Assembly: GCA_963837655.1 (NCBI GenBank)
Contig: CAWIOK010000013.1
Location: 54,078-78,077 of the forward strand
Origin: an uncultured Solirubrobacterales bacterium
GTDB lineage: Bacteria; Actinomycetota; Thermoleophilia; Solirubrobacterales; Solirubrobacteraceae
Direction of reading: 5' to 3'
Length of the DNA stretch: 24,000 bases
A program made the position numbers and the translations under genes. This document shows, one piece after another, positions 17,712 to 23,381 of the stretch. Each line of letters opens with the position of its first letter. Position 1 is the stretch's first letter. The notes beneath the pieces are model-generated. The model saw only the letters and a list, made by a program, of their open reading frames with translations. It was not told the DNA's origin and did not search any database.

Positions 17712-19124
17712 TTACGGGACCGCGCCTGTGACGCGCTGAGCTTGCCGGTACGCGTCTATGCCCTTCTGCACCGCCTGGTTGACCCAGTCAGGAAGCGGCT
17801 CCTCCTTCGTCGGCGCGGGTCCCTCCTCCCTGGCGATCGACCGCCCCTCCGTCGCGCGCTGTCTCATCGCGTTGGAGATGCCGGTGATCGCGGCACCGGC
17901 TCCGAGAATTCGAGCACTCCCGCCGACGACGCCCTTCAGGATCTCCTCGTAGATCCGGCGCAGCTCGTCCCGGGCGTAATACGGACTCATGCTCGAAGCC
18001 ACTCCCGTCTTGGAATCCGGCGCGATGAGCGACCACAGGTCCTCGTTGTATTGCACCAGCGTCGAGCGAACGAGCTCGCGCTGCCACTCCGACATGCCCT
18101 TGCGCGCTGCGAGGTATTGATAAAGCGCCGGCTCCGCGGGGAATTCCTGGTAGAACTGATACTCCCTGCCGAACGGCCCGGTCTTGACCCACACCACCAC
18201 GTTGGTGGAATAGCCGGAAGGCCAGGCTGCGGAGAACCTGTTCCTGTACAAGCCGTCCGCGAGGGTCCCGGCCTGAATCTCACGCCGCAGGGCCTCGGGC
18301 GTCCAGCTGGGCAATTCCAGGGCCCGCGGCGCTGAGCGCAACACCTGGACCTGTTCGGCCCAAGATTTCGTCTTTCCGCTCGCGGTCTGGCCTCGCTCCC
18401 CAGCCTGCGCCTGTGATGCCTGCTTCTTCTGCTGATCTTTGTCCGCCTGCTTTTCCTTCTCTCGCTTGTCGTTGGCCTTGTCGATTTCCTTGTAGACGAT
18501 GATCCCCGGCCCGCACCATCGGACCTGGAACCGCCTGCTTGCGTACACAACCTCGGCGGGCAACAGCGCATCGGCCGGGCGCATGGGTGAAAAGACACTC
18601 ACCTCGAACCGCCGCTTCACATCCTCGTTGGCGTTCGCCTTCTCGATGTAGTTGGCGAGCTGCGTTTCGCCGTCCACGACTTCCCAGTTCGCGGGCTTGA
18701 CCTCGGCGAGCAACATCACGCCCCTGCTCCGTGAGCGGAACGCCAGGTCGACATCTCCGTGTCCCGAGCCCTTGTTCCCGATCGACAAGGTGTTTACGGC
18801 CCTGTAGTGCGCGAAGGACGCGTCAGGCAGCCTGATGGGAATCGGCGGTCCATATCCCTGCCGCTGAATGCGTAGGCCCACCTGCTCCCGAATGACCCGG
18901 TGAACGGCTACGCCCGTGAGCGAATCACTGCGCTCGGGGTCCGTCGTGATGAACTCCAGGCAGGTGCTGGATGGTCCGACTGCGCCGCCCGGCGCGCTGG
19001 GGACCGGGTTGCCTTTGGGGGGTTTGCGCTCAGCTGTCCCGGGCGTGTCCGCGCCGGTGGCGGTGCCACGTGCATTGGTCCTGCGGTCGCTCGTCGCTCG
19101 CTGAGCTTCAGCCGGGCTCGCCAT
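17712..19124 (-). CDS. operon gene 3: unknown protein with N-terminal RecB/Cas4-like PD-(D/E)xK nuclease motif set
   Basis: 470 aa, ATG 19124, TAA 17712-17714. The first ~50 aa are Pro/Gly/Ala/Thr-rich. The ordered motifs are GHGDVD(126)LAF, 10 residues, VMLLAE(141)VK(143)P, 11 residues, then Q(155)LANY(159). A Lys/Gln/Asp-rich linker (aa ~214-253) precedes a Trp/Tyr-rich C-terminal ~215 aa with no motif I recognise. Confidence 0.8.
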   Translation of the reverse strand: MASPAEAQRATSDRRTNARGTATGADTPGTAERKPPKGNPVPSAPGGAVGPSSTCLEFITTDPERSDSLTGVAVHRVIREQVGLRIQRQGYGPPIPIRLPDASFAHYRAVNTLSIGNKGSGHGDVDLAFRSRSRGVMLLAEVKPANWEVVDGETQLANYIEKANANEDVKRRFEVSVFSPMRPADALLPAEVVYASRRFQVRWCGPGIIVYKEIDKANDKREKEKQADKDQQKKQASQAQAGERGQTASGKTKSWAEQVQVLRSAPRALELPSWTPEALRREIQAGTLADGLYRNRFSAAWPSGYSTNVVVWVKTGPFGREYQFYQEFPAEPALYQYLAARKGMSEWQRELVRSTLVQYNEDLWSLIAPDSKTGVASSMSPYYARDELRRIYEEILKGVVGGSARILGAGAAITGISNAMRQRATEGRSIAREEGPAPTKEEPLPDWVNQAVQKGIDAYRQAQRVTGAVP

Positions 19125-19144
19125 CCTGGGCCGATCTCAGGACC

Positions 19145-21191: not shown

Positions 21192-22880
21192 TCAGCTGTC
21201 CGTCCAATACAACGTCAGCCGCCCACCGTCAGGGATAATTATGTCCAAGTCCCCGAGTACATATCTGCCTTGCCCAATCGTCGAGGTCTCTTCCGTAACG
21301 AATTGCAGCAAGCCGGTGGGCAGCGCGCTCGTGTCGAGCCTTGCCATGTCCTCGTAGAATTCGGGCTGATTGTTCGCGTCGTTGAGCACCTGTAATGTCG
21401 CGGTGTCGTAGTTGTAAACGCCCTTGTAGTGCCCTTGGTCGTCCAAGATGTTGATGAATTTCTGGGAACCCTTATCGAGGACTTGGAATACGACCGCTTT
21501 CTTGTGGGATCGGGCACTCGTCTTGAGGACGAGTTCAACCTGTCCAAGTGCAACTGCGTTACGGTCGATCGTCGCGGCGATACGGTCCCCTCCGGCCAGC
21601 TTCCGGCCATGTACGAGGTCATCCCATGCCAGCGCCGGCTTCTTCCCGAAGTTCCCTGCCTCGCGTAGGAACAGCAGGACGAGTTCACTGATGCCCAACG
21701 TAGCCACCGCAGCTCCGACCCGGCCACCCGGGAAGTTCTGGTCGATGGCGTTGCCGACGTCAGTGCCAAGGTCATGGTCGGGCTTGGGGATGTTGTTTGT
21801 GCCTACGGTGCCGCCACCGCCGGGCGGCAGAGCGTTCTGGGCGAGCTGGCTCAACCGCCGAATCTCTCCGATCAGCCAGGTCAGATCGTCGAGCGAGCTG
21901 ATCGGCCGGTCGGCCGTGTCCGGGTCGTAGCCGAGGAAATCGACGAGCCCGACGTACTCCCGGTAGATCTCGCGTCCGAGCGCCTCGAGCTCGCCGTCGA
22001 AGATCTTCGTCCAAACGTTCTCGAACGCGATCTGGAGGGTGCTGAAGTCGTGGTAGGAAGTGACGTCGGTTGGGCCGGGGCGCAGCTCGAAGGTGTCGAG
22101 CAGATGCGCCTGGGCGCTGTTGCTGTCCGCGCCGTTGGGGATCAGGCCGTATTCCAGCCGCGACTCGGGCGCGGTGGCCGGCCCCATCTGCTCGACGACG
22201 GCCTTCTCGACGAAGTCGCTGACCTTCTCGGGGTCGACAGCGCCGTGCGCGTCCGCGGCTCGGTGGCCGTCGTGACGATCCTCATCGGCATCTGGCAATC
22301 CGTCGAGCAGCGCCTGCGCCTTGCGCTCGGCCTCGGCGGCCGTCAGCGCCGGCTCCGCCGGGAGCGTCAGCGTCGCGACGTCGCGGTTGTCGACGAGGTC
22401 GACGAGCTTGCCGAGCTCGATCGTCCCCGAAGTGGGCTCATCGCCGTTCTCCCAGTCGATGAGCGTGCTGTGCGCGCGCAGGGTGATGCCCGGCCGGGGG
22501 GTCGTGTCTCGGAGGGTCTCGATCCGGTCCCGAATCGCCTGATCGATCGCGCCGAACGGCGCCTCGTTCGCTGCGACGTGGTTGCGGGGCTCCGGCTCGT
22601 TGCGCGCCGGGACGCTGGGATCGAAGTTCTCGAACGCTCTGGCGACCCGCGCGTCACGCGAGTCGTTCTCGGCGCGAGCCCGGCGGAGGTTCTCGACGAT
22701 CCCGAGCCGTAGGTCGGTTTGTGCCCTGAACGCCGAGTCGAGGGCGAGACGGGCAGGCGTCTTCACCTCCGAGCGGTACCCATCGTCGCCGGCAGGTGGC
22801 ACTCCGGGCGGCGGCGCCTGTGTCGCTTCGCCGTTGCCGCTTGCAGACTCCGCTTCGCCCTCGAAGAATTTTGCGGCCAT
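21192..22880 (-). CDS. operon gene 1: large unknown protein (562 aa from ATG 22880; 574 aa from ATG 22916)
   Basis: ATG 22880 is preceded by GGGAGC. The N-terminal third is acidic and Pro/Ala-rich. There is a conserved-looking block SYHDFSTLQIAFENVWTKIFDGELEALGREIYREY, a Gly-rich loop PPGGGGTVGTNN (not a P-loop), and a beta-rich C-terminus (..VELVLKTSARSHKKAVVFQVLDKGSQKFINILDDQGHYKGVYNY..LTLYWTDS). A/T-ending codons are visibly more frequent than in flanking genes. Confidence 0.8.
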   Translation of the reverse strand: MAAKFFEGEAESASGNGEATQAPPPGVPPAGDDGYRSEVKTPARLALDSAFRAQTDLRLGIVENLRRARAENDSRDARVARAFENFDPSVPARNEPEPRNHVAANEAPFGAIDQAIRDRIETLRDTTPRPGITLRAHSTLIDWENGDEPTSGTIELGKLVDLVDNRDVATLTLPAEPALTAAEAERKAQALLDGLPDADEDRHDGHRAADAHGAVDPEKVSDFVEKAVVEQMGPATAPESRLEYGLIPNGADSNSAQAHLLDTFELRPGPTDVTSYHDFSTLQIAFENVWTKIFDGELEALGREIYREYVGLVDFLGYDPDTADRPISSLDDLTWLIGEIRRLSQLAQNALPPGGGGTVGTNNIPKPDHDLGTDVGNAIDQNFPGGRVGAAVATLGISELVLLFLREAGNFGKKPALAWDDLVHGRKLAGGDRIAATIDRNAVALGQVELVLKTSARSHKKAVVFQVLDKGSQKFINILDDQGHYKGVYNYDTATLQVLNDANNQPEFYEDMARLDTSALPTGLLQFVTEETSTIGQGRYVLGDLDIIIPDGGRLTLYWTDS

Positions 22881-23381
22881 GGAGCTCCCTACTCGCGGGC
22901 CGGAGCGTCGCGCCATGCGCGTTGCATCCGGCTTTGACTAGGTTAAACCAGTGAGTAATCAGCCTATCCGGAGCGGATCTGCACTGCCAAAAGTGCGTGC
23001 GGTGGTAGATCGAAGAGTCGAATTCCGCCTACTTGCCTCCGAACCTATCCGGGTGCGGTCCGGTGCGGCCGTCCTCGGCCTTGTCGAGCCCCGTGATCCG
23101 CGACATCGCGTCGACCTTGAACTGTCGGCAGCGAACTCTCGCACGGCGATCACGCCCGAGCAGGTCGCCGAGATCGGGCTCGAGCTGGGCATGCGTGCCT
23201 CGGACCTCGTGCAGTCCATCGGCGGCGGTCGCCATCAAGACGGAAGCGGCTCAGTGAGAGTCCTTCTTCGCCGCGAACGAAGCGCTCCCGCCGAGAGTGC
23301 CCCTATCGCGGGCGGTCTCAAACCACCGACGCACCACCCGAGAGAGTCGGCGGCTCGCTGACGAACGAGGGAGGTGCGGCG

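Follow-up and report, generated by a model that had tools for sequence, protein, structure and literature searches.

A widespread protein, split over two genes, and its exchangeable third gene in an uncultured Solirubrobacterales bacterium: a possible toxin-delivery module

What might an operon do when none of its three products resembles a described protein? The question is raised by three genes, here called g1, g2 and g3, in a 24,000-nucleotide stretch of DNA from an uncultured Solirubrobacterales bacterium (contig CAWIOK010000013.1 of assembly GCA_963837655.1, positions 54,078 to 78,077; the window in what follows). A sequence-only reading had described them as three co-directional open reading frames (ORFs) of 562 or 574, 681 and 470 residues on the minus strand, and had proposed a sensor/scaffold pair joined to a nuclease in an undescribed anti-phage-type system. 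The three ORFs are present where that reading had placed them. We found that g1 and g2 are two halves of one protein, not two families, and that the third gene is swapped between lineages, and our analysis suggests that the operon, instead of being an anti-phage system of the classical type, is a toxin-delivery module that has not been described. The principal features are as follows.

21192 to 22916, minus strand: g1, N-terminal half of the split, putative carrier protein; longest ORF 574 residues
21188 to 21194, minus strand: junction of the g1 stop and the g2 start, TGA-T-ATG, read directly in the sequence; the gene-fission point
19145 to 21190, minus strand: g2, C-terminal half of the putative carrier protein, 681 residues; the most conserved component of the module
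17712 to 19124, minus strand: g3, the swappable cargo or effector gene, 470 residues

The junction between g1 and g2 reads AGC-TGA-T-ATG, and 20 nucleotides (19125-19144) separate the g2 stop from the ATG of g3; both details of this packing had been noticed earlier and both can be read in the sequence. Homolog alignments and the public record agree on Met13, at position 22880, as the likely start of g1, giving a protein of 562 residues.

One protein in two genes, and a variable third

In nearly all of the 75 genome loci that we surveyed at one genome per species, g2 is directly preceded by a g1 homolog; the number of loci is a lower bound because the scan used just two peptide patterns. In most of these loci, whose ORFs were called mechanically, g1 and g2 form a single continuous ORF of 1,000-1,330 residues. 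Indeed, among the 150 best representatives, 121 have a length of 1,000 residues or more and carry the g2 part at the C-terminus, and only 12 are stand-alone proteins of g2 size. The supposed sensor/scaffold pair is thus a single protein, hereafter g1g2, and since the two parts are fused in most relatives, the window carries a gene-fission form. The split form is also found in closer relatives of the window (loci L001, L003, L005, L081 and L083-L086). A programmed +1 frameshift at TGA-T-ATG that would restore the fusion was considered and judged unlikely, because the arrangement in L001 is instead an in-frame stop, and because the pattern agrees with ordinary coupling of stop and start.

The family is large and widely spread. 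A word-indexed search gave 956 matches to g2, the top 120 at 63-100% identity, and with one exception the named matches are called 'hypothetical protein'. In an exhaustive profile search, 2,160 representative clusters (50% identity) matched the g2 profile at E <= 0.001 and 754 at E <= 1e-30. Identity to g2 is 35-76% across bacterial phyla and archaea, and g1 homologs, which in almost every locus immediately precede a g2 homolog, are 30-83% identical to g1. Members of the family come from no fewer than 12 bacterial phyla and from several orders of archaea, with loci in Actinomycetota, Acidobacteriota, several proteobacterial classes, Bacteroidota, Cyanobacteria, Chloroflexota, Planctomycetota, Verrucomicrobiota, Gemmatimonadota, Myxococcota and Deferribacteres, and among archaea from Methanococcoides, Methanophagaceae, Methanomicrobiales and haloarchaea (including a megaplasmid). 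Megaplasmids or chromids carry four full-length copies.

The sequence-only reading had called the three proteins unassignable, and they are: profile scans of Pfam (2025), NCBIfam (June 2026), PADLOC-DB v2 (2023) and PHROGs and sequence searches of the PDB (2026) gave no meaningful match for g1, g2 or g3, PHROGs contributing only weak matches of unknown function. Profile scans of six fused and 40 diverse relatives were uninformative apart from rare accessory domains, and when family profiles, including one of the fused family, were compared with the PDB, g2 gave compositional coiled-coil matches only and g1 and g3 none. Neither 50,697 phage records (tblastn) nor 2.9 million IMG/VR contigs gave a homolog of the family. 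The searches thus brought no match to any virion, conjugation or housekeeping family, a result that would have spoken against a new system. Profile libraries and the searchable literature, in which work on archaeal polymorphic toxins is incompletely covered, held no description of the family or of the tag described below. A family of at least 2,160 clusters at 50% identity that is absent from the copies of Pfam, NCBIfam, PADLOC, PHROGs and the PDB searched here constitutes an annotation gap.

The gene after g2 is tightly coupled to it and is not conserved: over ~70 loci, the third genes fall into 44 BLAST clusters. At most other loci the third gene has no homology to g3, which has homologs at only two other genome loci in the survey; the g3 family comprises 22 clusters at 43-75% identity, again downstream of g1-g2. 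Two loci illustrate the exchange. In L083, the nearest relative of the window, g2 is 96% and g1 83% identical to the window, and the 631-residue third gene product is unrelated to g3; in L081, the third gene product is 76% identical to g3, and g1 and g2 are 33% and 64% identical to the window. The third genes of L083, L084, L085 and L086 have a common N-terminal module of ~80 residues and diverge beyond it. The third gene is swapped between lineages in the manner of a cassette, and g3, rather than being a fixed component as had been supposed, is one of dozens of interchangeable cargo genes. Conserved gene order, which had been proposed as a test, holds everywhere for g1-g2 followed by a variable third gene, but the full trio is confined to the small clade of the 22 g3 clusters.

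A Pfam scan of 57 third-gene products found PT-TG (4), Ntox5 (2), CdiA_C and a Pput2613-type deaminase, as well as DUF4347, DUF6973, OmpA and PKD domains. The toxin domains lie at the C-terminus, Ntox5 at residues 897-1011 of 1,140 and CdiA_C at 381-459 of 463; a colicin-DNase-like region, sub-threshold, occupies residues 753-834 of an 880-residue cargo protein, and a haloarchaeal neighbour is labelled 'pre-toxin TG domain-containing protein' by NCBI. No known trafficking domain or secretion signal (Sec, LXG/WXG, PAAR, VgrG, two-partner secretion (TPS), MuF and the like) was detected by Pfam in the 57 cargo proteins.

Several observations on individual loci may be added. The ~80-residue module, which follows the tag and has the pattern ...GTWVSASLxExGYAxxY...GYGAYxGLVRSxDGxPLxNPDRIxPGQEYLVP, is found in several cargo proteins; its carriers are L083 (4548-6443), L084 (8192-9544), L085 (8060-9616), L086 (8060-9592), L003 (12052-13974) and L014 (4763-6264). 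Its end resembles a LysM-type peptidoglycan-binding motif, one not called by Pfam. In L082 (3009-8410) a g3 homolog (P0181) stands behind ORFs of 380 and 80 residues without family match, and DDE and IS110-type transposases flank the region, which looks like a g1g2 module disrupted by insertion sequences with its cargo kept. A 30-residue fragment 80% identical to g2 residues 421-450 (the RLRVHVKENILYYMQAIW region) is found in L078 and in plasmid matches H5-H17, the rest of the gene being absent; it recurs on many Sinorhizobium medicae megaplasmids, Ensifer megaplasmids are also among the matches, and the fragment may be what is left after decay, or else a domain that some other protein has too. 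Among cultured Actinomycetota, Nocardia brasiliensis (L040), N. vulneris (L041) and Streptomyces spp. (L008/L025/L056) carry the fused form, and Agromyces sp. (L005) and Actinotalea solisilvae (L012) the split form with g3-type cargo; such strains would be practical experimental hosts.

The cargo tag and the putative nuclease of g3

Cargo proteins that are otherwise unrelated start with disordered pentads of the form [D/N/E]-R-G-[T/I/L]-x, often in tandem; DRGTTNRGTANRAIHNRGTG and QRGTFSRGTMSRGTE are examples, and the protein of L066 has eight consecutive pentads. The strict pattern RG[TILV]xxRG[TILV] occurs within the first 120 residues of 13 of 68 cargo proteins and of one of 1,154 control ORFs from the same loci, statistics that depend on the choice of the first downstream ORF as cargo; shuffled N-termini give a mean of 0.02 for this pattern. 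Arginine is followed by another arginine at +5 in 35 of 107 instances, which indicates a five-residue period. A single RG[TILV] is found in 55% of the cargo proteins versus 21% of the controls and is weak evidence. Three ORFs other than the first downstream one have the strict motif: two look spurious and the third is the second downstream gene of its module. The latter, at 3005-4036 (plus strand) of L019, a contig from a metagenome-assembled genome of a Prochloraceae cyanobacterium, encodes a tagged protein (ANRGIANRGIANRGK) second after g1g2, an arrangement which suggests that a module can have two or more genes after g1g2, or a small gene in between.

The window's own cargo protein is built as follows, in order from its N-terminus.

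19059 to 19103, minus strand: N-terminal tag, pentads QRATS-DRRTN-ARGTA, residues 8-22, from the g3 family alignment
Residues 23-50: Pro-rich linker
18480 to 18962, minus strand: putative PD-(D/E)xK nuclease domain, residues ~55-215, with signature codons at 18648-18749
Residues ~215-260: Lys/Glu-rich linker
17925 to 18317, minus strand: second conserved domain, residues ~270-400, from the family alignment; function unassigned
Residues ~400-420: Gly/Ala-rich segment
Residues ~440-470: C-terminal tail with a PLPDWV motif

The tag of g3 is a degenerate form of the consensus of its family, EQRGTGDRGTxARGT. In the putative nuclease domain, Glu141, Lys143, Gln155 and Tyr159 are invariant over 23 sequences and Asp126 is at least 90% conserved, and the nuclease-type motif set that had been noticed in g3 (D126, E141-x-K143, Q155-xxx-Y159) is therefore a conserved property of the family. 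The QxxxY after ExK is presumably a RecB/Cas4-type motif. Judged from these residues, g3 is a probable PD-(D/E)xK nuclease; searches of Pfam, NCBIfam and the PDB gave no profile or sequence match to a described family of this type. Trp274, Pro276, Gly291, Tyr293, Arg294, Tyr325 and Pro329, among others, are invariant in the second domain. g3 itself has none of the polymorphic-toxin domains of its sister cargo in the Pfam scan, and a divergent PT-TG in its Gly-rich segment was ruled out with a custom hidden Markov model (E = 2.5). The public record of g3 (P0169) starts at Met137 and has 334 residues. This deposited start appears to be wrong, since homologs conserve the full N-terminus of the 470-residue protein, including the tag and the catalytic Asp126.

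Structure, setting and possible function

Three parts of g1 and g2 stand out in the family alignments or in the AlphaFold2 models.

21837 to 22229, minus strand: g1 conserved core, residues ~230-360, including the block SYHDFSTLQIAFENVWTKIFDGELE, with invariant columns
21195 to 21629, minus strand: g1 C-terminal beta-sandwich domain, residues ~430-574, predicted local distance difference test (pLDDT) >90
19871 to 20383, minus strand: g2 long antiparallel helical hairpin, residues 270-349 and 361-440, pLDDT ~70-84

The conserved core is the sole part of g1 that tblastn detects in distant or fused relatives, and its invariant columns include His289, Asp290, Phe291, Ala297, Phe298, Trp302 and Asp307. 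More generally, the peptides of g1 and g2 that the sequence-only reading had quoted as highly constrained are all present, at alignment columns that are invariant or nearly so. The model of g1 has an overall pLDDT of 66 and is confident in the C-terminal sandwich only, for which Foldseek returns weak, generic Ig-like matches. That of g2, built on an alignment of sequences at least 63% identical, has a pLDDT of 49, and its sole confident part is the hairpin. The two predicted helices of ~80 residues each correspond to the coiled-coil-like core suspected earlier, and their Foldseek matches are generic hairpins, all at E > 0.001 (the RipA coiled coil, the alpha-pore-forming toxins AhlB/SmhB, colicin R domains and Smc). 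Variable N-terminal accessory domains on g1 relatives are binding-type modules: PG_binding_1 in two homologs, a CarboxypepD_reg-like beta domain (weak match) at the N-terminus of relatives and CHB_HEX_C_1/Fn3_assoc in one relative. As a separate observation, beta-type (alternating) amphipathicity peaks family-wide at g2 residues 131-140, 181-195 and 421-430 (about 20771-20800, 20606-20650 and 19901-19930). The peaks flank a Ser/Thr/Gly-rich low-confidence loop (TNFNVNAQETFG...KVEVEVSES), a pattern reminiscent of the membrane-insertion hairpins of beta-pore-forming toxins that is only suggestive.

When all ORFs from 74 loci were clustered, g1g2 was the sole recurrent family, which makes it a self-contained module: no ATPase (secretion ATPases included), lysis, regulator or immunity gene recurred among these ORFs, and no sheath, tube, baseplate or ATPase gene recurred within 8 kb on either side. 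The 41 second-downstream ORFs are mutually unrelated and match no known immunity family. Some loci lie near toxin-antitoxin genes, STAND-like NTPases and transposases, and others among housekeeping genes, as do L001 and the left flank of the window.

The window as a whole is high in GC (0.60-0.75), with a minimum of ~0.60 at 20500-22000, over the 3' half of g1 and the 5' end of g2, and 0.65-0.75 elsewhere. The operon had been described as richer in A/T-ending codons than every flanking gene. This holds for g1 and g3, with GC at third codon positions of 0.82 and 0.81, but not for g2, whose 0.91 is within the range of the flanking genes (0.89-0.98); the resulting mosaic, a GC dip in an operon whose g2 is nonetheless host-like, would fit recombination. 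Much of the defence-type setting once proposed was not borne out. The left flank consists of ordinary chromosomal genes (permeases, a monooxygenase, MerR regulators, heliorhodopsin, glutathione S-transferase) and is not a defence island; ARAGORN finds no tRNA in the window, and the att-like tRNA-Phe repeat was not found; the ORF at 16776-17285, read as restriction-gene debris, has no family match; and no IS110 remnant was detected among the window ORFs scanned. The IS30 copy, by comparison, is supported by HTH_38/HTH_32, typical of the N-termini of IS30-family transposases, in an ORF on the plus strand that starts at 23495 and runs off the window at 24000. No Rfam element was found in the window, and a promoter and terminator scan was empty, as expected with a high-GC genome. 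Farther to the left are a heliorhodopsin gene (13054-13839, plus strand; PF18761, E = 5e-90), ~1.3 kb from it a MerR-type regulator with B12-binding domains (10864-11751, minus strand) of LitR/CarH-like light-responsive architecture, and between the two an HtaA-like gene (11802-12926); this region may be a light-sensing neighbourhood unrelated to the g1-g3 module.

How might such a module work? The mechanism that we propose starts from two parts. g1 and g2 are the fission version of one highly conserved protein of ~1,200 residues; a variable beta domain of the binding type forms its N-terminal part, and it also has a conserved core of helices, an Ig-like sandwich, the long hairpin and a C-terminal region that is very conserved. 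g3 is one of many interchangeable toxin-like cargo genes, and the payload in the window would be a PD-(D/E)xK DNase. g1g2 would assemble into a carrier or translocator that recognises the N-terminal tag, would hold and perhaps shield the toxin within the producer, and would deliver it to competing cells in a way that resembles the shared docking of binary AB toxins. Resting as it does on sequence comparison, the proposal that g1g2 recognises the tag, carries and perhaps shields the toxin and delivers it to other cells has, in our estimate, an even chance of being correct. It would account for why g1g2 is so strongly conserved, why its relatives have accessory domains of binding type and why polymorphic-toxin domains occur in the cargo, and possibly for the missing immunity genes, which a toxin held by g1g2 may not need. 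Bolder, and put forward only tentatively, is the idea that g1g2 is the core of an unrecognised toxin delivery vehicle which is independent of envelope type, chooses its payload by the R-G-T pentad leader and shields it in the producer. If true, the vehicle would be common to monoderm and diderm bacteria and archaea, would make immunity genes unnecessary and would form a new class beside the type V to type VII secretion systems (T5-T7SS), toxin complexes (Tc), contractile injection systems (CIS) and umbrella particles.

Several results weigh against delivery by a carrier. No transmembrane helix or signal peptide was found anywhere in the family, so export from the producer is left unexplained. 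The poor g2 model and non-diagnostic fold searches give a carrier or pore no structural support at the level of the predictions. Only about half of the cargo proteins have a clear RG[TILV], and a single copy is common by chance. The nuclease domain of g3 is N-proximal, unlike the C-terminal toxin domains of classical polymorphic toxins. Finally, the cargo is not followed by any immunity gene that is recognisable or conserved, even where it is of the CdiA_C or Ntox5 type, and none is evident after g3 homologs, though small unannotated ORFs may escape such a search.

The missing signal peptides and immunity genes are equally what would be expected of an intracellular abortive-infection or anti-mobile-element defence, in which g1g2, as sensor or scaffold, would set free or activate a variable effector upon infection. 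Effectors are interchangeable in many defence systems, the distribution of the module is sporadic and suggestive of horizontal gene transfer (HGT), megaplasmids included, and the surroundings often contain transposases, a group II intron and STAND-like NTPases. However, none of the proteins matches PADLOC, they have neither an NTPase nor another known sensor domain, PT-TG, Ntox5 and CdiA_C are characteristic of toxins that are exported, the accessory domains of g1 relatives are of cell-wall- and carbohydrate-binding types, and the neighbourhood of L001 and the left flank of the window are housekeeping; we regard defence as unlikely, if still a serious competitor. What stands of the earlier proposal is an uncharacterised, horizontally mobile conflict-type module with a probable nuclease effector, but its anti-phage role is unsupported by PADLOC and sits poorly with domains of secreted toxins. 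If the module did act in defence, it would represent a widespread ATPase-free defence architecture. An addiction module akin to toxin-antitoxin systems, with g1g2 as a universal neutraliser that sequesters tagged toxins and has no intercellular role, would also dispense with specific immunity genes, and it would suit both a conserved partner that is, by gene order, always co-transcribed upstream of the toxin and an association with mobile DNA. Yet a protein of ~1,200 residues at 35-76% identity across domains of life is unlike any antitoxin, and the binding-type N-terminal domains and the PT-TG and LysM-like cargo modules would have no role, which makes this explanation very improbable.

The machine might instead be encoded elsewhere, for example as an extracellular or cytoplasmic contractile injection system, with g1g2 and the tagged toxins as its accessory cargo, loader or adaptor. 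The phyletic spread (Actinomycetota, Cyanobacteria, Bacteroidota, Myxococcota, Chloroflexota, haloarchaea, Methanomicrobia) resembles that reported for extracellular contractile injection systems (eCIS), and the disordered cargo N-termini recall the disordered N-terminal signals that CIS cargo also uses. Many toxins of the Photorhabdus virulence cassette (PVC) type also lack adjacent immunity genes (PMC3482391). The survey of 8 kb on either side of 74 loci brought up no recurring machine gene, however, and Pfam domains typical of CIS cargo, such as DUF4157, were not seen in the 57 cargo proteins, and we think this explanation improbable. That g1 and g2 are structural proteins of a prophage, virion or conjugation apparatus, with the third gene an unrelated neighbour, is effectively refuted: long helical hairpins and Ig-like domains do occur in tail and fibre proteins, and PHROGs gave its weak matches, but phage and viral collections hold no homolog, phage or conjugation genes do not recur nearby, and the third gene appears to be translationally coupled and has a specific common tag.

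The link between the family and swappable toxins, made through a simple and recognisable peptide tag, gives a testable hypothesis on a new route of toxin handling or delivery. Tag and gene position mark dozens of unannotated cargo families as candidate toxins, and should the tag prove enough for loading, other proteins might be loaded with it.

Relation to known toxin systems

Polymorphic toxin systems have been described by Zhang, de Souza, Anantharaman, Iyer and Aravind (2012; PMC3482391) and by Jamet and Nassif (2015; PMC4436062). Like them, the module combines a conserved part, there devoted to trafficking, with hypervariable toxin modules exchanged by recombination, its cargo includes PT-TG, Ntox5, CdiA_C and a deaminase, and its distribution is sporadic and HGT-driven. 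Unlike them, the conserved part is a separate, unclassified protein of ~1,200 residues rather than the N-terminal domain of the toxin; the common element of the toxins is a short R-G-T pentad tag rather than LXG/WXG, PAAR, TPS or MuF; adjacent immunity genes were not found at these loci; and several archaeal orders carry the module. The putative nuclease has its own parallels in PD-(D/E)xK toxins, namely the PoNe effectors of type VI secretion systems (PMC6688995) and Tox-REase (PMC3482391), with which g3 has in common the order D...ExK then QxxxY. These residues make g3 plausible as a DNase payload, whereas the missing family profile match and the N-proximal position of the domain, ahead of a second conserved domain, set it apart.

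A closer analogy to the proposed division of labour may be drawn with binary AB toxins. In anthrax toxin, the protective antigen (PA) serves both lethal factor (LF) and edema factor (EF) as the one binding and translocation component, and these enzymatic components have a common N-terminal docking segment and different catalytic domains. The module would similarly have one conserved component serving several enzymatic ones with a common N-terminal segment. However, the searches detected no relationship in sequence or fold, a pore formed by g1g2 is purely hypothetical, and PA is secreted by Sec whereas g1g2 has no signal peptide.

With Tc (ABC) toxins, eCIS and PVC the module has in common a large conserved scaffold with long helical elements and hypervariable toxic payloads; there, too, the payload can be shielded and immunity genes are often absent (PMC3482391). 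It differs from Tc and eCIS in that no TcA, TcB, TcC, RHS, sheath, tube or baseplate domain was found in g1g2 or its neighbours, the Tc protein XptA2 being a weak, generic helical match to g2 only. Encapsulin cargo-loading peptides offer a parallel to the tag, as a short conserved peptide on unrelated cargo encoded beside a conserved assembling partner; unlike encapsulins, the module has no HK97-fold shell, its tag is N-terminal, repeated and Arg/Gly/Thr-based, and its cargo would be toxins and not metabolic enzymes.

The umbrella toxin particles of Streptomyces (PMC11062931; PMC13274773) offer a further parallel as actinobacterial antagonism complexes in which a long stalk of coiled coil is combined with polymorphic toxin domains and with targeting modules of lectin type. 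In these particles, however, the toxin domain is within UmbC and the particle needs UmbA and UmbB, whereas here the toxin is a separate protein; recurrent partners of the UmbA/UmbB type or umbrella repeats were not found by the 74-locus clustering and general scans, which included no dedicated ALF-repeat model, and the g1g2 family extends far beyond Actinomycetota. The logic of the module is that of polymorphic toxin systems, and it differs from the T5-T7SS-linked, Tc, PVC/eCIS, MuF, TANFOR and umbrella types in the absence of immunity genes, in its tag, in the separation of carrier partner and toxin, in the identity of that partner and in its spread among archaea.

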